A stretch of DNA of 64,000 nucleotides from an uncultured Nitrososphaerota archaeon (lineage in GTDB: Archaea > Thermoproteota > Nitrososphaeria > Nitrososphaerales > Gagatemarchaeaceae), in contig CAVRAG010000007.1 of assembly GCA_963718895.1 (NCBI GenBank), positions 416,001 to 480,000 of the forward strand. Direction: 5' to 3'. Under the pieces are notes generated by a model that was not told the DNA's origin, did no database searches, and saw only the letters and a program-made list of their open reading frames with translations. Positions 47,383-62,920 of this stretch are shown here, piece by piece (position 1 is the stretch's first letter; each line of letters opens with the position of its first letter). A program made the position numbers and the translations under genes.

Positions 47383-47401
47383 GGCGCCGGGAGTGGGATT
47401 T
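47383..47401 (-). repeat. tRNA 3'-end fragment (att-like site, probably tRNA-Ser)
   Basis: Minus strand reads AAATCCCACTCCCGGCGCC (T-loop half, T-stem, acceptor 3' strand, discriminator G); no 5' half adjacent; gene content changes here. Confidence 0.72.
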
Positions 47402-47704
47402 TAGCGTCTAATTAGACGCCCGAACACAGGATTTCTTGACGTTTCCTGGCATCCTGCACATTCTTGCCCAAGGCGTATTCGGATGGAGTCCGTTCCACTC
47501 ATTCTGACTTGCAATCTAACAAAGAGTGATTAGTAAGTAGCTCCCGTAACGGACGGCGGCACCCGCTCCGAAGACCACAAGAGATATCGAACGAAACTGG
47601 TCTGGCAACCCCAAGGAGACAGTCTGGTTTATTTCGAAGCCTATGCCCCCGTGTTGGTAGTTTGGGTTGTAGATGACAGGGACGAAAAAAGGGTGAACCC
47701 TATC

Positions 47705-47930
47705 GCCAGGACCAATGCCGACTTTCGCTTCCACCTCGCGGCGCCGACGGTGAGGACGTTCGAACTGGTCTATTCAGGAGGGAGGACCGACATATTGCTT
47801 TCAGCGGAGACGGTGGAGGACATGAGGAAGTATGCAGGGCTGCTCAGCTTGGTGTACGGAGGAATGAAGTTCGAGAGTGCTGAACCTCATCCTGATTTCT
47901 TGAGAGAGTTGCCTTCCACTGTGGGCCTGA
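47705..47930 (+). pseudogene. Fragment of a probable element backbone gene
   Basis: Coding-like stretch RTFELVYSGGRTDILLSAET...YAGLLSLVYGG without a credible N-terminus. Confidence 0.4.
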
Positions 47931-47949
47931 CTTCCCGGCGTTTTTCGAG

Positions 47950-47975
47950 GTTCGGACAAAAGTATTAATCAGGAA
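47950..47975 (+). promoter_or_regulatory. Cargo promoter motif copy 1
   Basis: GTTCGGACAAAAGTATTAATCAGGAA, contains TATA-like TATTAAT, upstream of the 48007/48046 gene. Confidence 0.7.
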
Positions 47976-48045
47976 ATTGCCGCCGCGAGCTACGAATTGG
48001 TCTGACATGGTCCCCCAGCTCCAAGATCGTTGTTTGGCGGGATTC

Positions 48046-48480
48046 ATGGACCTAGCTGAGAAGGTAAGCGGGGGGCTGTTCGTGGCTGCTTGGGTCGTCT
48101 TTGCCTTCGATATCATCGGGTACTGGTATAATGGGATCACCTTTGTGCTGCTCTTTCTGCTGAGCGGTCTCATATTCGGTTTTGACTTCTTCACCAAGAG
48201 GACGAGGCCCCAGAGGAGAAGCAAGGCCATTGCCGCCTGCATAGTCATCGGGATCTTCCTGTTCTTCTTCGGCCCCGACCTGCAAACGGGAGTGCTCCCG
48301 AACGGTCAAGACAGCGGCTTGATCTGCAACGGCAATGACACCAACTGCTCCGGCATCACTCAGCTACAATCGGTCACGGAATACCTCTGGTGCTGGGGGC
48401 CGGAGTACAACATCGCGCTGCCTCCCACAGTCGAGTTCGTGGTGACGTTCGGATGCCTGCCCAACTTCCCTGTGACATGA
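48046..48480 (+). CDS. Membrane protein with Cys-rich extracellular tail (cargo)
   Basis: Three TM segments then C-x5-C...C...C; alternative start at 48007. Confidence 0.65.
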   Translation: MDLAEKVSGGLFVAAWVVFAFDIIGYWYNGITFVLLFLLSGLIFGFDFFTKRTRPQRRSKAIAACIVIGIFLFFFGPDLQTGVLPNGQDSGLICNGNDTNCSGITQLQSVTEYLWCWGPEYNIALPPTVEFVVTFGCLPNFPVT

Positions 48481-48575
48481 TCAACGATGAACTCGTATGC
48501 GCCGCTTTTCTCAGTGACGGTCACCGGTCGAGAGCCGGATTTGGTCTTTGTACCCTTAGAACATTGTGACGGACA

Positions 48576-48812
48576 TCAAGATCCTTCGCAGCTCCAGACT
48601 CTTTCCGGGCGGGACGAACCCACGGACAGCGCCAGCGCCTGGCAGATGGCCTTGACCGCCATGGCAGATCTCACTGTCTCGTTGGTGACCTCGATCCAGC
48701 GGATTCCTGCCCTGTAATAGAAATCCACCTTGGAGTGGTCGTGAATTGAACTCTTTGCCCCTGATATTCCTATAACTATTCGCTTCTCTCTGCTGACCAC
48801 GAGGTCAGGCAG
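48576..48812 (-). pseudogene. Orphan 3' fragment of the DUF559-like nuclease (diverged copy of 50085-50321)
   Basis: LPDLVVSREKRIVIGISG...KVDFYY..IRWIEVTN...ICQALALSVGSSR is colinear with the 50085 gene. Confidence 0.85.
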
Positions 48813-48832
48813 GGATGCTTGCATCCCGAGTC

Positions 48833-50026
48833 TTAAGGACTCAGGGCGAATGCCGTAGAGTTGACCATGAAGCAGTATGCGTACGGAGACCCCGTGTCGC
48901 CAGGTACACTGAACATGCAGTTGTCCCCCGATGGTTCCCCAGACTTCCCGGAGTACGGGTACCAGACCGTTATGGTGTAGCTCTTGGCGCTCCAGGGTCC
49001 CGAGGATGGGACCTGGGCGGTGCATCCAGAGGTCGAAGCGGCCTGGGCGGCGCAGTTGAAGATGAACGCCTGCGAGAACCCCGAGGCGGTACATGGGACT
49101 GGATTGTTGTTCTCCGCGCAGCCTCCTCCGTTGGCTAGGAAGCTCCCCACCTCTGGTAGGTTGTGTGACGCCACGACAGAAAAGTGCAGAATGGTCAACT
49201 GGCCCCACTCGTCGCCGGCCACCAGAGTGTAGTTCGCGGGCAGGGACGACCCGAGTGAATTGTAGCCCAATCCAGCGGTGGAGTTAGCGGCGTAGATGCT
49301 CTCCTGTACGGCCATCCTCGTTGGGAATGTTCCCTTGGCTAAGGACTCGGTGTTGTTCGCAGTGTACGTGCACACCCCCGAGTTGCACACGGGCGGCGGT
49401 TGAGCGCCCGGGACGGCGTAATAGCCGGCGTAGGTCCCGTTGTCACGTCCAGCGAGCAGGGAGTAGCTGGTGATGCTGTGCAGGGGGTAGTACTGGTTGC
49501 CGACCGAGACGCCGTCGGAGACACATTCCACAAGGGCCCACACCGAAAGCGGCTTCCCTGCACTGGAGAGGTTGTTCAGCCCATACGTCCCCCTGAAGAC
49601 GCCTATGCCGACCGGAAAGAATAGCTTGTTGGTACTGTTGCCAAGGTCGCACGGTCCAGCGCTCAAGCCACCGATCGCCCAGGCGTTGGACGCGGTCAAG
49701 TTGTTCGCAGTGGGTAGGGTGTTCAGGACCGAGGTGGTGATGTGGATGGCGTCCTGGCTGGGTATCATCGTCGAATTGACCGACAACGTGAGTTTCAGGC
49801 CCAAAGATGACGAATTGGTGGTTACGGTCGCTGATCCGGGTCCAGTGTAGCTTGTTGTCTCGGTGCCTTGTGAGGACGACGCGAGGGAAACAGCCGAAGA
49901 GGAGCTACTGCTCTTGGATGCGCTCGGCGAAGAAAACGTAACGAAGGCGAGCGTCCCTGTGGCGACGACGATTATCACTGCGACGACGATAACGGTCGTA
50001 CCTATTGCTTCCCTTGCACGCCTCAA
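48833..50026 (-). CDS. Membrane-anchored secreted Cys-rich protein with GDEWG domain (cargo)
   Basis: N-terminal TM, Ser linker, GLKLTLSVN, NNLTASNAW, PVGIG, YTLVAGDEWG, Cys-rich C-terminus. Confidence 0.8.
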   Translation of the reverse strand: MRRAREAIGTTVIVVAVIIVVATGTLAFVTFSSPSASKSSSSSSAVSLASSSQGTETTSYTGPGSATVTTNSSSLGLKLTLSVNSTMIPSQDAIHITTSVLNTLPTANNLTASNAWAIGGLSAGPCDLGNSTNKLFFPVGIGVFRGTYGLNNLSSAGKPLSVWALVECVSDGVSVGNQYYPLHSITSYSLLAGRDNGTYAGYYAVPGAQPPPVCNSGVCTYTANNTESLAKGTFPTRMAVQESIYAANSTAGLGYNSLGSSLPANYTLVAGDEWGQLTILHFSVVASHNLPEVGSFLANGGGCAENNNPVPCTASGFSQAFIFNCAAQAASTSGCTAQVPSSGPWSAKSYTITVWYPYSGKSGEPSGDNCMFSVPGDTGSPYAYCFMVNSTAFALSP

Positions 50027-50055
50027 GCCGATTCTTTGGTTAGGACCCCAGCGTT

Positions 50056-50077
50056 TGATTAATAGTTATGTCCGAAC
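50056..50077 (-). promoter_or_regulatory. Cargo promoter motif copy 2
   Basis: Minus strand GTTCGGACATAACTATTAATCA, upstream of the 50026 start. Confidence 0.7.
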
Positions 50078-50084
50078 GATACCG

Positions 50085-50603
50085 TCAAGCCTCTTCGCAG
50101 CTCCAGATTCTTTCCAGACGGGACGAACCGACAGACAATGCGAGCGCCTGGCAGATGGATTTGACCGCCTCGGCTGATTTCACTGTATCGTTAGTGACCT
50201 CAATCCAGCGGATGTCGTGCTTGTAATAGAAATCCACCTTGGAGCGGACGTGAATCGAGCTCTTCGTACCTGATACTTCTATTACGACACGCCTCTCGCG
50301 GCTCACCACAAGGTCAGGAAGATACACTCTCGGGAGAGCATCGCCGCCACAGCTTTCGCAAGCGACTGAAGGTAGAGTGTCGTGAGGACCTATGATTGGA
50401 GCATCGGTGCGTTCGACGGAGAACTCACGCCCGCATTTGGAGCACTTCATTGAAGACCAGTCCACTATCCTGCAGTCGCGCTCCGCCGCTATGCCGTACC
50501 AGTTGAGGGAGGCGAGGAACGAGGCTTCGGAGTCGGTCTGCGAGACCCTGAATTCTGAGCGATTCCTTGAGAATCTGTTGCTCGTCGGAGGAGATGTGGT
50601 CAT
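50085..50603 (-). CDS. DUF559/Vsr-like PD-(D/E)xK nuclease with inserted Zn ribbon
   Basis: SEASF, CSKC...CESC, YLPDLVV, VVIEVSG..H, IRWIEVTN; ATG at 50603 overlaps the upstream stop (ATGA). Confidence 0.7.
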   Translation of the reverse strand: MTTSPPTSNRFSRNRSEFRVSQTDSEASFLASLNWYGIAAERDCRIVDWSSMKCSKCGREFSVERTDAPIIGPHDTLPSVACESCGGDALPRVYLPDLVVSRERRVVIEVSGTKSSIHVRSKVDFYYKHDIRWIEVTNDTVKSAEAVKSICQALALSVGSSRLERIWSCEEA

Positions 50604-51235
50604 TTGATTTGGACGATCTCCAACGCATTCTTTTTGTGGGGACAGCCGTGATAGTGAGACTTGGCAAAATTGCAGTTGTGGCACAACACTTGGAAGCCTT
50701 CGGGGTACCCGTGGAGCTTGAGCCATTGCTCTATTGTGCCCTTGAAGGTCTTACGATGCTTACAGCCATCATTGTAGATATGGTCAATGGCAAGAAACTC
50801 AATGGTTCCTTCCCCGCAACAGGAACAATGAGGTGGATCTCCACCATAGTGAAGCATGGCAGCGGTTCGAATTTTATGACGGCTCCTCTTAGCGAACTCG
50901 CGTCGCATTTCGGGACGTCGCGAGAAGTACTGCTCTCTCCCGTAGAGGTTCTTGTGAGCGTTAGAACAGTATTTTCTTGTTGGCCAAGTTGAAATGAATG
51001 CGACGCCGCAATACTTGCAAACACATGATCTGGTCCACGACTTCCTAGGACCTTGGATTACTCCGGCGACGCGCAAACTATGTAACTTGTTCTTGATTGA
51101 AAGTTGGTTTCGACCCACCAATCTGGCCGTTTCGTCTAGTGTTGCCGTCTTGTAGCAACCCAGCAGAATTTGGACTTGTTCGTCGGTCCAATAGTATGGG
51201 TAAGAGTGGATTTCGCTGAATCGCGCCGATGTCAT
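50600..51235 (-). CDS. HNH-type endonuclease with N-terminal Myb-like and Zn-finger modules
   Basis: WTDEQVQIL, CKYC...YCSNAH, CSCCGE...LAIDHIYNDG, QVLCHNCN; low GC. Confidence 0.75.
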   Translation of the reverse strand: MTSARFSEIHSYPYYWTDEQVQILLGCYKTATLDETARLVGRNQLSIKNKLHSLRVAGVIQGPRKSWTRSCVCKYCGVAFISTWPTRKYCSNAHKNLYGREQYFSRRPEMRREFAKRSRHKIRTAAMLHYGGDPPHCSCCGEGTIEFLAIDHIYNDGCKHRKTFKGTIEQWLKLHGYPEGFQVLCHNCNFAKSHYHGCPHKKNALEIVQIK

Positions 51236-51238
51236 GAG

Positions 51239-51481
51239 TCACTGTGCTCCCGTCTGCTGAATCTCTCCGGGTTGCTCGGACTTGTGGTCGTTCGACTCCT
51301 CCCCTGTTTCTATTACATCCGCCTTCTCGGGTAGCTGCACGATCCCGAGATACCTCGTAACTACACGCCCGTCGACCCTGTAGACCTCCTGAGCGAAGGC
51401 GTAGGGGCCGGTCCTAGCCGCCTTTGGATAGATCCTGCCGTTGATCCGCTTCCTGTAGAAGACTGTGGCGCACAAATCCAC
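51239..51481 (-). CDS. Small basic mobile-element protein
   Basis: YRKRINGRIY...GPYAF...YRVDGRVVTRYLG, a pattern I associate with transposase N-termini and archaeal plasmid/viral proteins. Confidence 0.6.
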   Translation of the reverse strand: MDLCATVFYRKRINGRIYPKAARTGPYAFAQEVYRVDGRVVTRYLGIVQLPEKADVIETGEESNDHKSEQPGEIQQTGAQ

Positions 51482-51511
51482 CGCTATGCTGCGAGGGCAA
51501 TTAAGCCCCCA

Positions 51512-52339
51512 TCAAGAGACGGTGAAGTACGCTATGGCCGAGGTGCCCCATTCGTCCTCCGCCAGGACCGTGTACGTCCCCTTTGGGAAGCTCGTGAAAC
51601 CGCCGCCGTTCTGGCTCCAATACCCTCCAGCTGTCACTTCGACGGATACTTTCTCGGTCAGGCACGGGCCGGTCCCGCAGGACCCGTAGACCATGGCTGA
51701 GTCATTCATGGGCTGGAAGACGTACCTGGCAATATCGGAGAGCCCTGCGGGACAGCCGAAGGTGGCTCCCGGGTTGACGAGGTCCAGGAACTTGGCTAGG
51801 GTCATGTTGGAGGAAGCATAGTGCCCCTCGGCGATTGCCAGCCCGACGGGGTAGTTACCGGGCCAGCAGGGAGGTCCGTTCAAGCCGTTAAGCGTGAGCG
51901 GCCATTCGTTCGCTGCCGTCAGATTGTTCGTGGTGGCGAGGGTGCTGCGTTCGTCGACGGTGACGCTCACCATGATGCCGCTCGCCGAGGACGATGAGGC
52001 GTTCAGAGAGAGCTGGAGCTGCAGGTTGTTCGCAGAGTCGACGACAGCTTTCGCCGTGTGGGTCGGTTCAGCCGTTACCGAGTAGCTTACGCTCGAGCTA
52101 CTGCTGACCGGCGTGGACGCAGTGGCGAAGGAGATGGAGTAGCCTGTGACGTCCCTCCATGTGCCTCCGACTCCGAAGCCCTCGTATGTCACTGACCCAT
52201 ATCGCAGAAAGTTGCAGCCGTTCGCGGGACAGGCGAATGCTCCCGGAGGGGGCGCATAATAGACAACAGGGACGAGGAACAGGAAGGCAAGGATGAATGC
52301 GATAGCAGCTCCAACAGCGACCTTTCGATTCACCTTCAT
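51512..52339 (-). CDS. Membrane-anchored secreted protein with DEWG domain (cargo, paralog of 48833 gene)
   Basis: FLVPVV...CPANGC...SVTY module then LQLQLSLN, NNLTAANEW, PVGLA, YTVLAEDEWG. Confidence 0.8.
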   Translation of the reverse strand: MKVNRKVAVGAAIAFILAFLFLVPVVYYAPPPGAFACPANGCNFLRYGSVTYEGFGVGGTWRDVTGYSISFATASTPVSSSSSVSYSVTAEPTHTAKAVVDSANNLQLQLSLNASSSSASGIMVSVTVDERSTLATTNNLTAANEWPLTLNGLNGPPCWPGNYPVGLAIAEGHYASSNMTLAKFLDLVNPGATFGCPAGLSDIARYVFQPMNDSAMVYGSCGTGPCLTEKVSVEVTAGGYWSQNGGGFTSFPKGTYTVLAEDEWGTSAIAYFTVS

Positions 52340-52380
52340 ACTACTGTCCTCATCCCAGAATAGAGGTCATGATAGGTCGA

Positions 52381-52406
52381 TTCCTGATTAATAGTTTTGT
52401 CCGAAC
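52381..52406 (-). promoter_or_regulatory. Cargo promoter motif copy 3
   Basis: Minus strand GTTCGGACAAAACTATTAATCAGGAA; 25 of 26 nt identical to copy 1. Confidence 0.7.
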
Positions 52407-52476
52407 GCCCAATTCATCGATGAGTGACAATGCCGTCGGAGTTCCCGCGTTATAAGCCGCCATACTCCTACATCGC

Positions 52477-54858
52477 GTGTCCCGCACAATCGACGACGAG
52501 GAGATGATATTCCACGCGCTCTTCATCGGCTCAACCGGCGCTGGAAAGACGAACGCGATGCTGTTCTGGCTGCGCAGGCTCTTCTCCAACAGGAAGGACG
52601 TCGCTCTCGTCCTCATCGACCCCCACGGGGATGCCGCCGTCGATCTCGTGCGCCTCATCCCGAAGTCTGAGAGGGAGAGGATCACGATACTCGACCCGAC
52701 CTACGTATCGTTCGGGCTGAACCCGCTCTCGCTCCCAGCCAGTATCGATGGTTTGAACAGAGTCCAGATACTCCAGACCCAAGTGGAGGAGCTCTCCGCC
52801 CTCCTCTCCGACGTCTTCAACACCGACGCGGCCACCGCCCCTAGGCTGATGTGGGTCTTCAAGGGCGCCCTCTACTACCTCTACACTCTCGACGACAACC
52901 CCACCTTCAGGGACCTCTACCGCATCCTCGTAGACTTCATCTCGATGCCTCGGTCGGAGATCGAGTGGATGCTCAGGAGCAGGGAGCTGGAGGACGAGAT
53001 AATCAGGAGCACCATAGACGCCATCTCCAAGCTCCCCAAGGACGCATTCGCGCCGGTCGTCAACAGGATATCGAACTTCGTCCTCCCTCCTCAGTCGATA
53101 ACCTCCAGGACGTTCTGCTCGAGGACGAGCAAGCTCGACTTCGACGAGATGATGGTCCCGGGAAGGCTCACGATATTCAGGATAACAAAGACGCTCCCCT
53201 ACGATTTCCGGAGGCTGATCTCCGCTTCCATCGCGATGAGGTTCTACTTCACGGTGGAAAAGAGGGCGGCCAGGCTCGAGCGGGAGGGCGAGCCTCCTTC
53301 GGCGCGGACCCCGGTCGTGCTTGCGGTCGACGAGTTCCAGAACATCAGCGACCTGAAGCTGCTCGACACGATCCTCTCGGAGTCGAGGAAGTACGGCCTC
53401 TACCTGTGGATGGTTAACCAGAACATCCAGCAGATACGGCCGGAGCTCTTCAGCTCGGTGAGCGGCAACGTCGGCCCCGTCTACGCATTCAGGGTGGGGC
53501 CTGACGACGCATCGAAGATATCCGAGCTGATCTCGCCCGAAAGGAAGGATGAGGTCAGGAACGCCCTCATCTCGCTCCCGGACTACTCCTGCGTGGTGAG
53601 GAAGAGGCCCCACGGGGAGGACGTCGCTGGCAAGCCCTTGCTGCTGGAGCCGTTCCCGAGGGTGGGCGAGTGCCTGTGCGGCACGAAGGAGGTCATCGAC
53701 TACATGAAGAAGGAGGTGGAGGATAGGTATGGCGGCGCCCACGAGGCGACGGACCTGGTCTACAAGAGCCCCGGGGAGGAGATCGCGGGAAAGTCAAGCT
53801 CGAGGGTCCCGTTCACGCCGGTAACCTGGAGGATACTGACGGCCGGCTACCTCAAGCTCATGTCCGACGCCTATCCGCTCGAGTTCTCCCGCATCCGGAC
53901 CGAGTTCTTCGCGAAGCACTCGTGGCGGACCTCGGACGTACAGGAGGCCCTCAACGCCCTGGTCAACAGGGGGTTCCTCACCCAGACCTTCGCCCGTCAG
54001 GAGTACGTCATGAAGGGGAAGGACGTGAACGGCAACCCGGTCATGCTCCCGCCCGACCCCTCCGTGGCGGACCAGATGGAGAGGACGAAGACGGTAATCT
54101 ACAACCTGACGCCGCTCGCACTGGAGTACCTCCAGATGAGGGTCGGGTCGTCGAAGGCGGGGGACCCGAAGCACCTGCGGGTGATAGAAAAGCTGCTGAA
54201 GCAGGAGTACTGGACGATGGGATACTTCACCGTAGTTGACTGGGGCGAGGGCAGCGGCGGCAAGCCCGACATAGCGGTGCTGAAGCCGTGCGTGAGGGAG
54301 GTCAGGGACAGGGACGGGAACGAGCTGCGGATGCCCGACCCATACTACTGGGACTATTCGTCAAAGATCGCGGTGGAGGTCGAGATGGCTCCTCAGAAGA
54401 ACGGGGAGCAGGTCCAGAAGAACTACCGCAAGAACGCGGAGGTCTACGCCTCCATCAGGTTCGTCGTGACTTCCGACATCAACGCCAAGCAGCTACAGGA
54501 GATTCTCAGCGAGGACGTCAAGGCCGACCCCGAGAAGTACAGGATAGACAAGATCGAGTTCGAGAGCCTGAACGAAGTGGAACCGGCCAAGAGCGAGGAA
54601 CCAGCAAGCCCGCAGGTGCAGGTTCTTGAGCCTCTGGGACCGGCTGAAGAGATAGTGCTCTCCCTAGTCCTATCAGGCGGGTACACCAGCAGGGAGGAGA
54701 TCGCGAAGAAATGCAGTGATGCGGGGCTCGACGTGGGTGAGAGGTCGGTCTCCCGGTACCTCAGGAATCTGACCGAGAGAGGGCTCCTGAGGAGGGTCGG
54801 GAACGGTTACGAGCCGACGGAACTGTCGAGGAAGCTGTCTCGTCAGGATACTCTCTGA
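52477..54858 (+). CDS. VirD4/TraD-like coupling ATPase fused to wHTH, PD-(D/E)xK-like and HTH domains
   Basis: HALFIGSTGAGKT, LIDPHGD, GLNPL, VDEFQN, LSESRKYGL...NQ; C-terminal KH..., KPDIAV, IAVEVE, SVSRYLRNLTERGLL. Confidence 0.82.
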   Translation: MSRTIDDEEMIFHALFIGSTGAGKTNAMLFWLRRLFSNRKDVALVLIDPHGDAAVDLVRLIPKSERERITILDPTYVSFGLNPLSLPASIDGLNRVQILQTQVEELSALLSDVFNTDAATAPRLMWVFKGALYYLYTLDDNPTFRDLYRILVDFISMPRSEIEWMLRSRELEDEIIRSTIDAISKLPKDAFAPVVNRISNFVLPPQSITSRTFCSRTSKLDFDEMMVPGRLTIFRITKTLPYDFRRLISASIAMRFYFTVEKRAARLEREGEPPSARTPVVLAVDEFQNISDLKLLDTILSESRKYGLYLWMVNQNIQQIRPELFSSVSGNVGPVYAFRVGPDDASKISELISPERKDEVRNALISLPDYSCVVRKRPHGEDVAGKPLLLEPFPRVGECLCGTKEVIDYMKKEVEDRYGGAHEATDLVYKSPGEEIAGKSSSRVPFTPVTWRILTAGYLKLMSDAYPLEFSRIRTEFFAKHSWRTSDVQEALNALVNRGFLTQTFARQEYVMKGKDVNGNPVMLPPDPSVADQMERTKTVIYNLTPLALEYLQMRVGSSKAGDPKHLRVIEKLLKQEYWTMGYFTVVDWGEGSGGKPDIAVLKPCVREVRDRDGNELRMPDPYYWDYSSKIAVEVEMAPQKNGEQVQKNYRKNAEVYASIRFVVTSDINAKQLQEILSEDVKADPEKYRIDKIEFESLNEVEPAKSEEPASPQVQVLEPLGPAEEIVLSLVLSGGYTSREEIAKKCSDAGLDVGERSVSRYLRNLTERGLLRRVGNGYEPTELSRKLSRQDTL

Positions 54859-57169: not shown

Positions 57170-57407
57170 CTATGGCAGCGAGTATGCCACAGCGAGCTCC
57201 GCCCAATCGTCACCGCTCGGTGCTGCCCACGGAGCCGTCGTGGAACCGTATGTCCAGCCTGGACCGAACTCGGCGGCAGCGTACCAACCGGTACTGCTGC
57301 CCATCATGTAATAGTACTGACCGGTCTGCCAACCACCGCCGGTCCTAGCCGCCTTAGGGTACAGCCTGCCCCTGATCCACTTTCTGTATAGGATTGTTGC
57401 GCACAAA
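57170..57407 (-). pseudogene. Chimeric remnant: 5' fragment of the 51481 gene fused to a surface-protein C-terminus
   Basis: 57338-57407 matches 51407-51476 (CAT..YRK.I.GR.YPKAARTG), then switches to AAAEF...STTAPW...DWAELAVA. Confidence 0.7.
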
Positions 57408-57603
57408 GTGAACTCTGTTGCGGCAGTCCAGATAAGCGCCCCTCATGTTATAGAAATAGGGTTCTGATTGATGGTTTACGTTGGCGTTGTCGTGGCTAGG
57501 ATGCCGAGTTTGGCGCATCGAGGCATGAAGTTCAGGGAATCGGGGCCAAACCATCCTACCTGAGGGAATTGCCTGAAATGGTAACGTAGCCCGGGCCTGT
57601 TTT

Positions 57604-57909
57604 CTACCCGTCAGTTGTGCTGACGACAACGATTCCGGAGCTAGCCGCAACGTAAAGGTCATGGTTTGAAGGGTCGTACACGAGCGATGAAGCACCCGGT
57701 ACGTTGATGCTAAGCAGCTCTGCGTTGGTCGCCCCATTGACGGCAACGACAGTTCCGCAGGCTGACATGAACGAGATTCCCCTCACTGAATCGTAGGCGA
57801 AGCCGTCGAACTCGCTTCCCGTTCCGCCCGAGCAGGGGACGGTAAAGTTCCCGACCATCGTCGTACCGTTGATCTCGGTGTTGTACCCGTAGGTGATCCA
57901 CCACGTCAT
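57604..57909 (-). pseudogene. YVTN-type beta-propeller fragment
   Basis: FAYDS, VAVNGATN, LVYDPSNHDLYVA repeats. Confidence 0.55.
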
Positions 57910-57933
57910 GGAAACCGGCGTTCAAAGAAGCCA

Positions 57934-58221
57934 CTACACGCCTGGTGCGCAGATCCACTCGTTTGCGGCTACGCTGCAGTCATGCGTCGATATCCAATAC
58001 TGCGCAGGGGTATTAGTCATCCATACTAGCACGGCTCCCCTGCTGACCAAGAAGTAGGTCACAGACACATGAGCGACGGGGGTAAAAACGAGGCCTCCTG
58101 GGCAATCCGGACAATAATAGTAGTGAATCTTCTCCGGAACGACGGGGGCGAGAAACAGCAGCGCGCCCAATCCGACGATGAGTAGCGCCATCGCCCCAGC
58201 CTTCTTCAGCGAAATCATCAT
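57934..58221 (-). CDS. Small membrane protein with FLxPVV-CxxC-SVTY module
   Basis: LLFLAPVV...CPDC...SVTY, similar to the N-terminus of the 52339 gene. Confidence 0.55.
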   Translation of the reverse strand: MMISLKKAGAMALLIVGLGALLFLAPVVPEKIHYYYCPDCPGGLVFTPVAHVSVTYFLVSRGAVLVWMTNTPAQYWISTHDCSVAANEWICAPGV

Positions 58222-58255
58222 CGCGCAAGGAGAAGGGCGAGGAGTTTAGTCTTTC

Positions 58256-58284
58256 ACATATCATTCTGGGAAATGTTGATATGT
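58256..58284. promoter_or_regulatory. Inverted repeat between divergent genes
   Basis: ACATATCA-N13-TGATATGT. Confidence 0.4.
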
Positions 58285-58310
58285 TGAGGAAGCGGGTTTC
58301 GCCATGACTT

Positions 58311-58854
58311 GTGAAACCCCGCACCATCTTCCTCTGCCTGCTGCTTGCCTTTGCCTCTCTCGAGACAGCAGTCGCCGTCATAGGCGCCTTCGCACCCGGC
58401 ACGGCCGCCCTTGGCAGCACGATGGGACTGAACGGATTACATGCGCCGACCAACCCCGCGTTTCGCTACTCTGTTCCTCTCGCGGCGGGGGGATGGATCG
58501 CGGTCGGCGCCATCCTTTTTCAGGGCCGGATAGCCAGCGGCTTCAGGCGCTCGCGGGTCAAGAGTCTCTTCGCGAGCAGGGGGTTCGGACCTGATGTCTA
58601 CGATCTCATCGATCACGATGCGCGGCGGAGGCTCCAGGATAACGCTCCTCGAGAACATGGAGACCCCGAAGAACAGGCTCGAGCTCTCCGAGCTGACCGG
58701 AATCGACTGGAGGGAGGTCGACAGGGAGGTCTCTATACTCGAGAAGTACGGGCTGGTGAAGATCTACGCGCAAACAGGGACCGTGAAGATGTACCAGGTG
58801 ACGGAGCAGGGCAAGCTGCTGATGAATCTGGTTGGAGAATTGAACGGCAAGTGA
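58311..58854 (+). CDS. Membrane-anchored winged-helix regulator (frameshift near 58610)
   Basis: Two TM helices then MRGGGSRITLLE...PKNRLELSELTGIDWREVDREVSILEKYGLV...YQVTEQG in the adjacent frame. Confidence 0.72.
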
Positions 58855-59036
58855 CGCGTCTTGGCTCGAGGAAGTTGCCCAGGCCCACCATCGGCATAAT
58901 CGGGGCGACCCTGCTGGTCATAATAGGTTTCGCCGTCTACTTCGCTGGGCGGTACCTTGGATTATCTCATGCCAAACCTAAAATAGTTTTGCGGCGCAAA
59001 TCTCCAGCGAAGCCTATTCAATTGCGTGGCTCTAAG

Positions 59037-59579
59037 ATGACAGGAACAAGCTCGGGTAGGGCAGCCCTGGTTCTCATGTTAATCCTGGTCTTCGCCGTCG
59101 TTTCGTATGTACTTCTGGGCCCCGATTCCTCAGGAGGTGGTCCACCAGTAGGGGAATCTACTAGTGCCCCGACAACCAGCTCCACCACTACCTCCGCAAC
59201 AACCCATACTAAGAGTTCTGCCACGCAAAGTCAGACAACTTCTCCCGGTTCAGCCATTAATGCAGGAGGGACCAGTGGTCCACTGGGTGGATCATTCCCA
59301 AAAGAGGGCTCTTTCGAAGTGACCCTAAACTCTAGTATGTACGCTGAATTAGTCTGGAATGCGACTGGTATCATCGATGTGCATCTCTATAATACGACTG
59401 GAGGACAGGCATTCTCGAATACTGGACAGCAGTCTGGAAATTACACTTTCTGTGTTCCCACGACAGGCAGCTATGACATCAAGTTTCAAGATCCCAATGT
59501 CTTGAACAACGCGCCTGTTATCCAATCGAGCGTGTATGTGTATGAAATCAAAGGCGGCGCATGCTCCCCTTCACCATGA
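59037..59579 (+). CDS. Membrane-anchored secreted protein with Ser/Thr linker
   Basis: ATG at 59037, TM segment, Thr/Ser run, small beta domain. Confidence 0.7.
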   Translation: MTGTSSGRAALVLMLILVFAVVSYVLLGPDSSGGGPPVGESTSAPTTSSTTTSATTHTKSSATQSQTTSPGSAINAGGTSGPLGGSFPKEGSFEVTLNSSMYAELVWNATGIIDVHLYNTTGGQAFSNTGQQSGNYTFCVPTTGSYDIKFQDPNVLNNAPVIQSSVYVYEIKGGACSPSP

Positions 59580-59597
59580 GGCGATTGGTGCATTTCA

Positions 59598-60863
59598 GTG
59601 AAAGCGACAAAGCAAAGGCATGATTCAGTAGACCTAGCATGGAAGCGAGTCTTCCGTGAGGCGGGCTGGTCGCTCGTTATTGTGGTCGTCCTGACATCGG
59701 GCCTGGTGGCTTGGATACTGATACCTTCGGTGGCGACAAGCCTGGAGACCGGGGTTGACGCCTACTCGAACAGCGTGGGGACCTACATTGTGGTCAATAC
59801 TGGTGGTGGTCGGTGCGTACCGGCTTTCGGAGGATGCGCCTCTCTGCTGCCTCAGAATGTCACGGATGCCATCGCCAGAATCCCGGGGGTAGAGAAGACG
59901 TACCCGATAATCCTCAATCTCACCACACTATACGTAAGGAATTCTACTGGTCAGGTCACGATGTACGAAGGCGAGACCAGCGCCCTGCTCGGCGGTCCGA
60001 AGGGCTTTCCACCAAGCCTCTTGGTTCTTGCCGCAGGAAGATATCCGAGTAACGCACCCGAGTTCGACATAAACAGGGCGCCGAACGTTCAGTTGAACGC
60101 CACAGAGGAGGTGGACATCGCATGCCAGTTCTGCCTCCACCCGGCCCAATCCCACGGAAACGTAACGGACCCCTTTGAAGCGACTGCTGTGGGGTCGCTC
60201 GCGCTCAATCCTCTGTTCGCCAATGTCTTCATTCTCTGGAACTCAACACTGATGCTTCACAAACTCGGCCCTACATTGTACAGGCAGACGTGGGATGGGA
60301 ATGGAAGCAACTACATCATAGTGAAGGTCGATAGCGTCGCTGACGTCCCACGCGTTGTCAACGCGACCCAGCAGCTTATCCAGCCACCCCAGTACGGCCT
60401 CTTCACCGTAGTCTATAACCAGGCGTTGTCTCAGAGCCTGCAGTCGTTAACCTCTCAGACCGCGCCGCTGTACGAGCTCATCGGGGCCGTTTCGCTCATC
60501 GCAGTAGCAGGAGTCTCGTTTCTGGTGTCGCTCTTGATTGCCAGAAGAAGGGACTGGGAGGCGGGCGTCTACCTCACGCAGGGCTGGAGTTGGAGAGAAG
60601 TGTACACCCTGTACTCTGCCTACTTCCTCTTCCTCTCGCTGGCCTCTTTCGCCATCGCGGCCGTCTTGTCGACGTTCGCCAGTCGCTACTTCACCGCCAC
60701 ATACAACGTGTATGGCACCTTCACCACCTTCACTGCGGCGGTCGTTCCTCTCTACCTGATCAGCGGCCTCGCATTCGCCATCGTGCTGGCCTTCCTTTCA
60801 TCATACATCATCGTCAGGAGGCAGAAGCGGATGGGACTTGACGATATCGTGAGGGAGTACTAG
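59598..60863 (+). CDS. MacB/FtsX-type ABC transporter permease
   Basis: TM, large extracellular domain (IPGVEKTYP, GRYP, YIIVKVDS), RRRDWE.G...TQGW, three C-terminal TMs. Confidence 0.82.
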   Translation: MKATKQRHDSVDLAWKRVFREAGWSLVIVVVLTSGLVAWILIPSVATSLETGVDAYSNSVGTYIVVNTGGGRCVPAFGGCASLLPQNVTDAIARIPGVEKTYPIILNLTTLYVRNSTGQVTMYEGETSALLGGPKGFPPSLLVLAAGRYPSNAPEFDINRAPNVQLNATEEVDIACQFCLHPAQSHGNVTDPFEATAVGSLALNPLFANVFILWNSTLMLHKLGPTLYRQTWDGNGSNYIIVKVDSVADVPRVVNATQQLIQPPQYGLFTVVYNQALSQSLQSLTSQTAPLYELIGAVSLIAVAGVSFLVSLLIARRRDWEAGVYLTQGWSWREVYTLYSAYFLFLSLASFAIAAVLSTFASRYFTATYNVYGTFTTFTAAVVPLYLISGLAFAIVLAFLSSYIIVRRQKRMGLDDIVREY

Positions 60864-60864
60864 A

Positions 60865-62138
60865 ATGAAGATCACACCGAGGGTGATGACCCAACGACCC
60901 GAAGGGCACTGAAACTCAGCACCAGTCGAGCGCTGCGCGAAGTAGGCTGGTCGGTCGTCATAGTCGGTGTCCTCACCTCCGGCCTCACCGCCTGGATCCT
61001 GATACCATCGATTGGCTCCACGCTCAGCTCTAATCTGACAACTTACGCCAACGGCGTGGGCACCTACATCTCTGTGGAGGGAAGCGGGGGCGCGGTCCCC
61101 CAGAGTACGATACGCAACATCTCGGCCATCCCAGGCGTCCAGGAGGTCTACCCATTCGTCGTCAATGGGACCTACTTCGTGGTCCACAACTTCAACACCA
61201 CCCTTGGTACCGGGCAATGGCATGTAATCCCCCTGGCCAGCTTCGGGGTTTCAAGCGTGCTCGTTGGCGGACCTGGCGGTTTCCCTCCTGCTCTGCTCAC
61301 CCTCTCCTCAGGCAAGGCTCCGGGAAACGAACCAGCTTTCGCCTTCGAACCCTACTTGGAGGATTCACAACCTCCCCAAACCGATGTCCAACTCGGAGTC
61401 GCCCAGGAGGTGGCAATCGGGTGCGGGGCCTGCGCCAATGTCAGCATAGTCGGTTCGCACTTTAACGCCACAGCAGTTGGCGAGGTAGCAGTAAATCCGC
61501 TATTCAGCGACATAGCCCTCTTCTGGAACTCCACGTTCATGATGAACCACCTCGGGCCGCAGCTGTACCAAGAGGAGTGGGGGAGCAACAGGAGCAACTA
61601 CCTGATAGTCAAGGTGGACAGCGTGGCCGACGTCCCGAGGGTGGGGAGCGCCATCGGCCAGCTACTCCCTCCTCCCTTCCAAGCCAACTACGACCAGGTC
61701 TTCGCCCAGGACGCCCAGAGCTTCGTGACCCAGACGGCCCCCCTGTATGAAATCATCGGGCTCATCTCCCTGGTCGCGGTCATTGCGATAACGTTCCTGG
61801 TGTCCCATCTGGTCGCGGGCAAGAGGAGCTGGGAGGCGGGGATGCTGCTGACCCAGGGGTGGAAGTGGAGGGAGCTCTACTCTCTCTTCTCGTACTACTT
61901 CCTGATGCTCTCAATAGTATCGTTTGCCTTGGCCGCCGTCATCTCCGTGGCCGCCAGCCACTTCTTCACCTCCACCTACTACATCTTCGCCCAGCAGGTG
62001 ACTGTCACGGCCGCAGCCGACCCGTTCTACGTGGTCACCGGCCTCCTACTGGCCATACTGATGTCCCCGTTCGCCTCCTGGACGGTCGTCCGAAGACTAA
62101 AGAGGATGGGGCTCGACGGAATCCTGAGGGCGTACTAG
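60865..62138 (+). CDS. Second MacB/FtsX-type permease (paralog; 5' frameshift near 60905 or CTG start at 60909)
   Basis: RALREVGWSVVIVGVLTSGLTAWILIPS lies in frame upstream of the 61056 ORF; colinear with the 59598 gene. Confidence 0.82.
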
Positions 62139-62139
62139 C

Positions 62140-62757
62140 ATGATCAAGCTCGAAGGGGTCTACAAGAACTACGGCGCCATCAGGGTGCTTGAGGGGATTG
62201 ACCTGCAGGTCGAGGAAGGAAAGCCGCTCTGCCTTCTGGGAAGGAGTGGCTGCGGAAAATCAACCCTCCTGAAGCTCGTCGCGCTGATAACGAGGCCGGA
62301 CAAGGGAACCCTGACCATCGACGGCAACGACGTAACCAAGATCAGCGACCCGGAGATGGATGAGTTGAGGAGGGAGAAGGTGTCTTACACCTTCCAGGAG
62401 CCACTCCTGATCCCGTACATCACCGCGCTGGAGAACGTCACAGAGGTCACCGGGGCGCCGAAGGAGAAGGCGGTGGAAGTGCTGACCCAGCTCGGCCTCG
62501 GAGACAGGCTGAGCCACCACCCAGCGAAGCTGAGCGGAGGGGAGAAGAAGAGGGTGGACGTGGCTCGGGCCATACTGAGGAACACTCACATCCTCGTGGC
62601 GGACGAGCCTCTCTCCAATCTGGATCCGGAGACAGGTGAGAAGGTGATGGCGTTGCTGAAGGCGCACGCTGAGAGGGGCGGTATCCTCGTCTACTCGTCC
62701 GTGGAGCCCTCGGAGACGAGGTACGCAGCCCAAGTCATGAATATGGAGCGCAAGTAG
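62140..62757 (+). CDS. ABC transporter ATP-binding protein (LolD/MacB-like)
   Basis: GRSGCGKST, LSGGE, LVADEPLSNLD. Confidence 0.93.
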   Translation: MIKLEGVYKNYGAIRVLEGIDLQVEEGKPLCLLGRSGCGKSTLLKLVALITRPDKGTLTIDGNDVTKISDPEMDELRREKVSYTFQEPLLIPYITALENVTEVTGAPKEKAVEVLTQLGLGDRLSHHPAKLSGGEKKRVDVARAILRNTHILVADEPLSNLDPETGEKVMALLKAHAERGGILVYSSVEPSETRYAAQVMNMERK

Positions 62758-62920
62758 CTTCTCTCGAGCAGAAGCTGCGAGAGAGGATGGCCAGAGACGA
62801 CTAGCGAGAGCAACAATTGAGATAGATAGTGAACTAGAGAAGGGTGCGTCGCTGTGCAGAACGGGCAGTCCGTGCAGCGCTGTGCAGTCGTTAGATCCTT
62901 GTGCAATTCGGGAGAATCTC

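Follow-up and report, generated by a model that had tools for sequence, protein, structure and literature searches.

A 22-bp sequence, GTTCGGACAWAASTATTAATCA, which recurs in a 64-kb window of archaeal DNA (the whole stretch analysed here, 64,000 nucleotides from the genome that we call G000), probably combines two roles: it would be a dedicated promoter for membrane-anchored surface proteins and also a short region of homology through which the cargo genes behind it are swapped. We hold this reading with modest confidence, from comparison of sequences. A broader version is possible and is offered tentatively, namely that the genus Gagatemarchaeum maintains a genus-wide, integrase-free cassette economy in which the promoter is the connector, genes are swapped across species into any island or mobile element, and the regulon is controlled by a membrane-bound winged-helix sensor. 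The motif is found exactly at 47950-47971 (+), 50056-50077 (-) and 52385-52406 (-), all within an integrated element of ~19.9 kb; the window has no further match at up to three mismatches, and none of 100 shuffles gave any. A preliminary description of this DNA had reported three copies, the first and third identical at 25 of 26 nt, the second beginning 7 nt past the stop codon of a nuclease-like open reading frame (ORF; 50085), and each directed into a gene for a membrane or secreted protein. Exact matching and comparison confirm all of this, and each target ORF has one or more hydrophobic N-terminal segments. The same description saw a quasi-palindrome, GTYCGRAC, joined to a TATA-like sequence. 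The TATA part stands; the conserved box beside it is only the non-palindromic GTTCGGAC, with T at position 3 in 0.99 and G at position 6 in 1.00 of 269 sites (an invariance that is partly built in, because these sites were mostly gathered by exact pattern), and GTYCGRAC alone occurs 594 times in the genome.

It is likely, from its sequence and its position, that the motif is a dedicated host promoter composed of an upstream box (TTCGGAC), a transcription factor B recognition element (BRE) and a TATA box. A generic BRE-TATA matrix, learned from other genes, fits it best at positions 6-21 (10.2 bits), which predicts a leaderless start at position 45; purines peak at positions 45-46, and the called starts downstream lie from 41-47 onward and cluster at 44-59. 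The BRE and TATA thus sit at about -35 and -30 from the start, as in an archaeal BRE-TATA promoter, and transcription would begin near position 45. The possibility that the motif is simply the ordinary genome-wide BRE-TATA consensus, which the preliminary description had raised against itself, was rejected: scores are bimodal, a position weight matrix finds 62 sites in G000 and none in the reversed control, and the information content is 35.6 bits compared with 7.3 for the generic matrix. There are 28 exact 20-mers in the same genome. An ORF with an N-terminal anchor follows 47 of the 62 full sites, compared with 471 of 2643 genes (18%) and 71 of 2000 random island positions. A second variant, with the same left half and another TATA, has 14 sites (none in the reversed control), 13 of them before such ORFs. 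Since these sites also head anchored proteins, it is the left half that would define the promoter class; examples, often divergent from a site of the main type, are at G000 C4:232721, 243017, 245323 and 275751, C8:1169712 and C10:28914.

The proteins behind the motif differ from other anchored proteins in being richer in Ser/Thr (0.22 versus 0.16) and in having at least two cysteines in 90% rather than 40% of cases. They are not clearly pilin-like: a class III signal peptide, by sequence pattern, is seen in 5/60 against a background of 29/435, or 10/60 against 33/435 when the pattern is relaxed. A precedent for such an arrangement exists in Sulfolobus acidocaldarius, where the ultraviolet-inducible ups promoters carry an upstream hexamer before BRE-TATA (PMC5817253); there too a non-palindromic box just 5' of BRE-TATA marks a regulon. 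The hexamer differs in sequence, the present motif is far richer in information, and the abstract of the ups study assigns its box no role in rearrangement.

Five regions, drawn after the sites had been seen and making up 14.5% of the genome, hold 56 of the 62 sites, and within regions the sites are mostly co-oriented (19/25, 13/14, 7/7 and 6/7). At up to two mismatches 21 of the 22 other genus genomes have the motif, as do 3 of 74 other genomes of the family, and a metagenome scan returned at least 140 matches. The scan of the genome and its relatives bears out what had been proposed from the window, namely promoter-plus-gene units forming a shared regulon of exported proteins, enriched before such genes and concentrated in variable regions. 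The motif is nearly confined to the genus of the window; host and genus are likely Ca. Gagatemarchaeum. It is a feature of the host and genus and not a property of the integrative element, and a system specific to the element was rejected on the same genus-wide occurrence. A viral origin was also rejected, as the exact motif had no match in viral contigs. Two further observations concern individual sites. Three exact matches (L098, L106 and L122) lie in a genome titled as a bacterium, possibly in mis-binned archaeal contigs, and some sites are found 2-15 nt behind a repeat at the edge of an rRNA operon or behind an att copy resembling a tRNA 3' end (L275:10398 versus G000 C8:1567914; C8:1219360 and 1223461).

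An activator of this promoter class would read the left half of the motif, and the best candidate, judged from gene and promoter sequences, is a membrane-anchored winged-helix (wHTH) protein: of all motif-led genes its own is conserved most widely, as is the version of the promoter that it carries. A recognisable upstream variant was read by eye from the output in 18 of 24 distinct copies of this gene, among them those in G006, G008, G014 and G016, genomes with only one to three motif sites. Among the 22 other genus genomes, the 21 with the motif are also the 21 with this gene. In other genera a diverged motif precedes it, with in-frame starts at 43-49, the leaderless distance, in 10 of 16 loci; six are above the control maximum. 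The wHTH gene may be autoregulated through its own motif. A dedicated TFB was considered and rejected, there being ~10 TFB-like genes, one of them in the C4 region, none with a demonstrated link to the motif. Separately, TFB-like genes apparently lacking the N-terminal zinc ribbon occur at G000 C8:851589, 870074, 989848, 458109 and 133873 and at C4:216386, and at least three of these lie directly 3' of genes with a sortase-type-looking C-terminus. The wHTH family has ~10 genomic copies, including G000 C4:303598, C8:104810 and C8:1217034; a frameshifted and diverged member (37-39%) at 58311-58854 (+) in the window has no motif upstream and precedes an ABC permease/ATPase cluster.

The evidence for the second role comes from where homology between loci stops. 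Fetched loci and the islands of G000 were compared all against all, with blocks taken at ≥90% identity over ≥150 nt. A block end falls at the motif in both partners in 25 of 121 cases, against 1.2-2.2 expected, and at ≥98% identity in 6 of 19, against 0.2-0.4. When ends with resuming homology are excluded, 26 of 124 clean ends are at the motif in both partners and one is at generic promoters, with five of each one-sided. Blocks cross 23 motif sites and 63 generic sites without a break, so that breaks occur at 26/49 motif sites and 1/64 generic promoters. In four pairs the partners are 100, 99.7, 99.3 and 98.3% identical up to the motif, with unrelated DNA beyond. The proposal that the motif marks the insertion junction is thus supported by the excess of block ends, and is limited by the ~80% of block ends that lie elsewhere.

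Within the window's element the three copies have different histories. Copy 2 is a repeated swap slot, the only such copy there: behind nine other 3' ends of the nuclease-like gene we found five full motifs and one half motif, and six different downstream sequences, including that of the window. Copies 1 and 3, judged from alignments, arrived with their cargo. For copy 1, a motif is missing at that place in 16 of the 17 upstream-gene homologues; cargo 1 with its motif occurs behind other upstream DNA in C4 and L140; and five copies of cargo 1 all end at the same base, where the next motif follows in three. Only three of 18 homologues have a motif at the place of copy 3, with different spacings, and three cargo-3 homologues are not preceded by one. 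The slot before the VirD4-like gene is empty in four of 12 related elements, filled by motif-led cargo in four and by motif-free cargo in four; no motif is present in the empty slots. The block with cargo 2 and the block with cargo 3 and VirD4 are bounded not by the motif but by duplicated pieces of backbone genes (237 bp at 81% and 108 bp at 73%), which suggests accretion by single crossover in backbone genes. Comparison of homologous elements, which the preliminary description had proposed, favours its cassette breakpoints for copy 2 and speaks against them for the two inserted blocks.

A related genome, G010, carries element blocks 98% identical to 47384-50113 and 98-99.8% identical to 57338-62759 at the same att site (L011, G010:C3:969610-979830), and lacks the cargo-3 and VirD4 block at this place. 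Because the flanking host gene is only 76% identical, these values point to a recent cross-species transfer of element blocks between G010 and the genome of the window. The idea that copies 1 and 3 are the inverted ends of a transposon or invertible segment was rejected, since G010 has copy 1 without copy 3. Relative to G010, the window has also suffered a deletion of ~950 bp (57895-57909), in which a fourth motif was lost along with the 5' part of the gene behind it.

It might be argued that the motif is a promoter and nothing else, and that blocks end near it since a promoter with its gene is the smallest unit of use, intergenic stretches are short, and paralogues recombine in the leader and anchor region that they share. 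We consider this rather unlikely, although several observations agree with it. Identical blocks both start and stop at the motif, and more of the ends share the downstream side (18) than the upstream side (7); the places of copies 1 and 3 had no motif before the insertions; one-sided junctions are often found 2-60 nt 5' of a motif; and at ≥80% identity generic promoters, too, collect some ends (9, versus 28 crossed). A promoter alone does not explain why, in the four pairs, identity of 98-100% stops at the last base of the motif with both partners having it at the same offset, why six different cargos follow the same nuclease stop and motif, or why generic promoters break so much less often than the motif.

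There is also the concern that the assembly of short metagenome reads produced chimeras at a 22-bp repeat, and that the junctions are of this kind. Short metagenome contigs do make up many of the pairs with the highest identity, and unitigs break at the motif. Enrichment nevertheless persists in a mostly contiguous set (G000 together with eight genomes in 1-20 contigs each, plus eight loci from a single additional assembly whose contigs are 11-36 kb), where ends at the motif number 18/210 at ≥80% identity (3.2 expected), 6/100 at ≥85% (1.2) and 2/43 at ≥90% (0.4); the additional assembly is involved in one of the six at ≥85%. It persists, too, within G000 and G010 themselves, and we regard chimerism as a very improbable account of the junctions. 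Two contig joints, 50077-52385 and 52404-57435, were dismissed as repeat artefacts with 20-nt sides. One X9 contig spans 50052-50264 with a loose end near copy 2, a weak observation.

If the motif is both promoter and seam, the exchange could work as follows. Because its many copies are nearly identical, the motif would serve as short homology or microhomology where one cargo gene replaces another, through general homology- or microhomology-driven recombination, with the crossover at any point of the 22 bp or of the leader next to it and the other end often in a homologous backbone gene. Each product would keep an intact promoter before an intact gene and would for that reason survive selection. 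The integrative element of the window would be one vehicle for such promoter-plus-gene units and not their owner. Archaea do have microhomology-mediated end joining (PMC12281630), and certain of their integrases can recombine short stretches of identical sequence (PMC8371274). The junctions themselves are varied: some lie at -6 to +3 (the 5' edge), others after position 9 or after position 13. Among the 20 downstream-sharing pairs, position 10 differs in 6 and position 22 in 4; among the 9 upstream-sharing pairs, they differ in 2 and 3, respectively. The variable positions are thus not strictly linked to either flank.

A dedicated site-specific recombinase, either an atypical tyrosine recombinase or another enzyme, might instead insert and excise promoter-led cassettes at the motif in the manner of an integron. 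The contrast between 35.6 and 7.3 bits agrees with such an enzyme, as do small clusters of junctions (at the 5' edge and behind CGGACA), the tandemly repeated start of the cargo-1 unit at a motif in L140 (a sign of gene-plus-motif mini-circles that is suggestive only) and the several tyrosine integrases of the genome; the left half, TTCGGACATAA, also resembles the arm of the Pyrococcus abyssi dif site, TTGGATATAA, as given in the portion of that report consulted (PMC2958812). A Xer/dif-type site consists, according to the sections seen, of two 11-bp inverted arms around a 6-bp spacer (PMC8371274, PMC2958812), and here the second arm is absent: with a 6-bp spacer only 0-5 of 11 arm positions match, and the best inverted repeats are no better than those of shuffles. 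Folding of the 62 sites with 30 nt on either side revealed no attC-type hairpin (mean z 0.14 on one strand and 0.11 on the other), nor was there an IntI above the cut-off in a genome that is 80.5% complete (best match to TIGR02249 33.8 bits, cut-off 265). The nuclease-like neighbour, considered as the motif's enzyme, was rejected since its distribution does not fit: just 5 of 23 genus genomes have it, and it also occurs in genera that lack the motif. We think a dedicated recombinase unlikely. The motif is not an integron or dif site, and varied junctions, with no hairpin, second arm or IntI, fit homology- or microhomology-driven exchange better than a fixed cut. Integrons, including archaeal ones, do share with the present loci co-oriented arrays of short genes, rich in exported proteins and punctuated by a repeat (PMC9668308, in the part seen); the repeat here is a promoter 5' of each unit, without attC-like fold or IntI, and empty slots lack the site. 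The integron-like system owned by the element that the preliminary description envisaged is accordingly not sustained, given the genus-wide motif, the missing fold, arms and IntI, and the motif-less empty slots.

The closest likeness is to the PeSLs of the T4-like phages RB49 and phi1, described here from parts of two papers (PMC2839356, PMC4122927). In those phages strong, repeated promoters in variable regions head non-core genes, crossovers occur at several positions in the element and the products retain the promoter. By sequence, a consensus promoter repeated in variable regions is also what we find, and gene gain, loss or replacement with the crossover in the motif is seen, mostly as replacements. 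PeSLs, however, are ~100 bp long, include a stem-loop terminator, belong to lytic phage genomes and have demonstrated mini-circles, whereas the motif has 22 bp and no hairpin and lies in archaeal chromosomal islands and integrative elements, with mini-circles not shown; it is common to the species of one genus and heads one functional class, membrane-anchored exported proteins. No stem-loop terminator was detected (mean z -0.01 for the upstream 60 nt; a T5 tract in 3 of 62 sites), so the motif is not a PeSL by definition. In the haloarchaeal virus HGTV-1 an archaeal, TATA-containing repeat before many ORFs was proposed to be PeSL-like (PMC3950731, partly seen); that motif is viral and contains an inverted repeat, and shuffling was suggested from resemblance only, whereas breakpoints were counted here. 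The literature searched (supplements excluded) contains no cellular archaeal case of promoter-mediated shuffling, and the main text of the main Gagatemarchaeaceae paper has neither 'promoter' nor 'mobile'.

It should be noted that a number of points weigh against the joint role of promoter and seam. The compared loci were centred on the motif and the pairs are not independent, so that p-values computed from them overstate the significance, and 87 of the 124 clean block ends are at neither the motif nor a generic promoter. Some downstream-sharing pairs seem to cross in a paralogous leader and not in the 22-mer (for example L181/L184). G010, the closest relative of the window block, breaks 36 nt upstream of copy 2 and not at the motif; this window/G010 pair is one of the 20 downstream-sharing pairs. 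Empty/filled pairs are scarce, with none in a first search and two plausible ones among eight rows, both old (84-92%), in loci often too short to show such pairs; from their rarity, replacement dominates the visible exchanges. For homologous recombination 22 bp is short: the example of the pTN3 integrase has 104 bp (PMC8371274) and PeSLs span ~100 bp (PMC2839356), both figures from partial readings of the sources. As for the proposed regulator, the wHTH gene is also found in 15 genomes without the motif at up to two mismatches.

If the favoured reading holds, regulation and recombination would be joined in one 22-bp sequence, so that each swap would yield an expressed gene; on the broader, tentative version, any surface-protein gene carrying the 22-mer would also join the wHTH-controlled regulon at once. 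This would be a route for the turnover of surface proteins in an abundant, uncultured archaeon of acid soils, by a form of promoter-mediated shuffling that, in the portions of the literature seen, is demonstrated in T4-like phages and merely suggested for one archaeal virus. The motif would also be a handle with which to harvest the variable surface proteome from metagenomes, and it names a candidate regulator.

The left att of the element itself, where the G010 block starts, is an 18-bp copy of the 3' end of a tRNA (47384-47401, +). The other end is an intron-containing tRNA gene with the partner att copy; it lies shortly past the window's edge (G000:C7:483273-483390), beside a tyrosine integrase (G000:C7:481976-483211; weak PF00589 match, E 9e-4). 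The element's tRNA target, short att, integrase and VirD4-like ATPase are like those of the integrative-conjugative and cryptic integrated elements (ICEs and CIEs) of Thaumarchaeota (PMC6563490); the word 'promoter' does not occur in that paper. As no VirB4 was identified in the window part of the element, where no search was aimed at it, CIE or mobilisable element is the safer label. The small backbone gene at 47651-47968 (+), directly 5' of the VirD4-like gene in those elements whose slot is empty, has a frame that in this window runs on into copy 1. Cargo 1 follows at 48046-48480 (+), encoding 144 residues with about three membrane segments and a Cys-containing tail; in its homologues the ATG further upstream, at 48007, is not in frame. 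The 237-bp duplicated 3' piece of the nuclease-like gene lies at 48576-48812 (-), where it bounds the cargo-2 block, and no motif follows it. Cargo 2 (48833-50026, -; 397 residues) is membrane-anchored and rich in Ser/Thr and Cys.

No cargo protein had a Pfam or NCBIfam match above cut-off. Cargo 2 has 114 homologues, the close ones without an informative name, and a model from an alignment of 78 sequences is confidently all-beta (pLDDT 88.9); it gave only generic Ig-like or beta-sandwich matches for residues 1-206 (best Z 6.0, root mean square deviation 2.9, 93 residues aligned), and no Foldseek match at E ≤ 0.001. The Zn-ribbon backbone gene at 50085-50558 (-), a putative PD-(D/E)xK nuclease, has no family match and only zinc-ribbon hints; the nuclease label comes from a PD-(D/E)xK-like sequence pattern. 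The ORF at 50600-51235 (-), in lower-GC DNA, is inserted between two backbone genes with a short duplication; we presume it to be HNH-like, again from a sequence pattern. It is absent from G010, G000 C8 and an X7-run contig (joint 50528-51253). The 108-bp direct repeat at 51407-51514, paired with 57338-57445, is a duplicated 5' part of a small backbone gene and bounds the cargo-3 and VirD4 block, in which cargo 3 (51512-52339, -; 275 residues) is membrane-anchored. Copy 3 is divergent from the promoter (TTATAAG at 52450) of the VirD4/HerA-like coupling ATPase (52477-54858, +), a backbone protein with a C-terminal wHTH, found at any level in 12 of 23 genus genomes. At 57604-57909 (-) a 3' remnant of a fourth cargo gene is left; in G010 a further ~950 bp are preserved, among them a motif that lies 9 nt from the junction (57895-57899). 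Finally, related elements contain short tandem repeats of a unit with TTGGCAAC (G000 C8:1209700-1210550; L021, L030, L037 and L237), which are possibly iterons of a replication or transfer origin.

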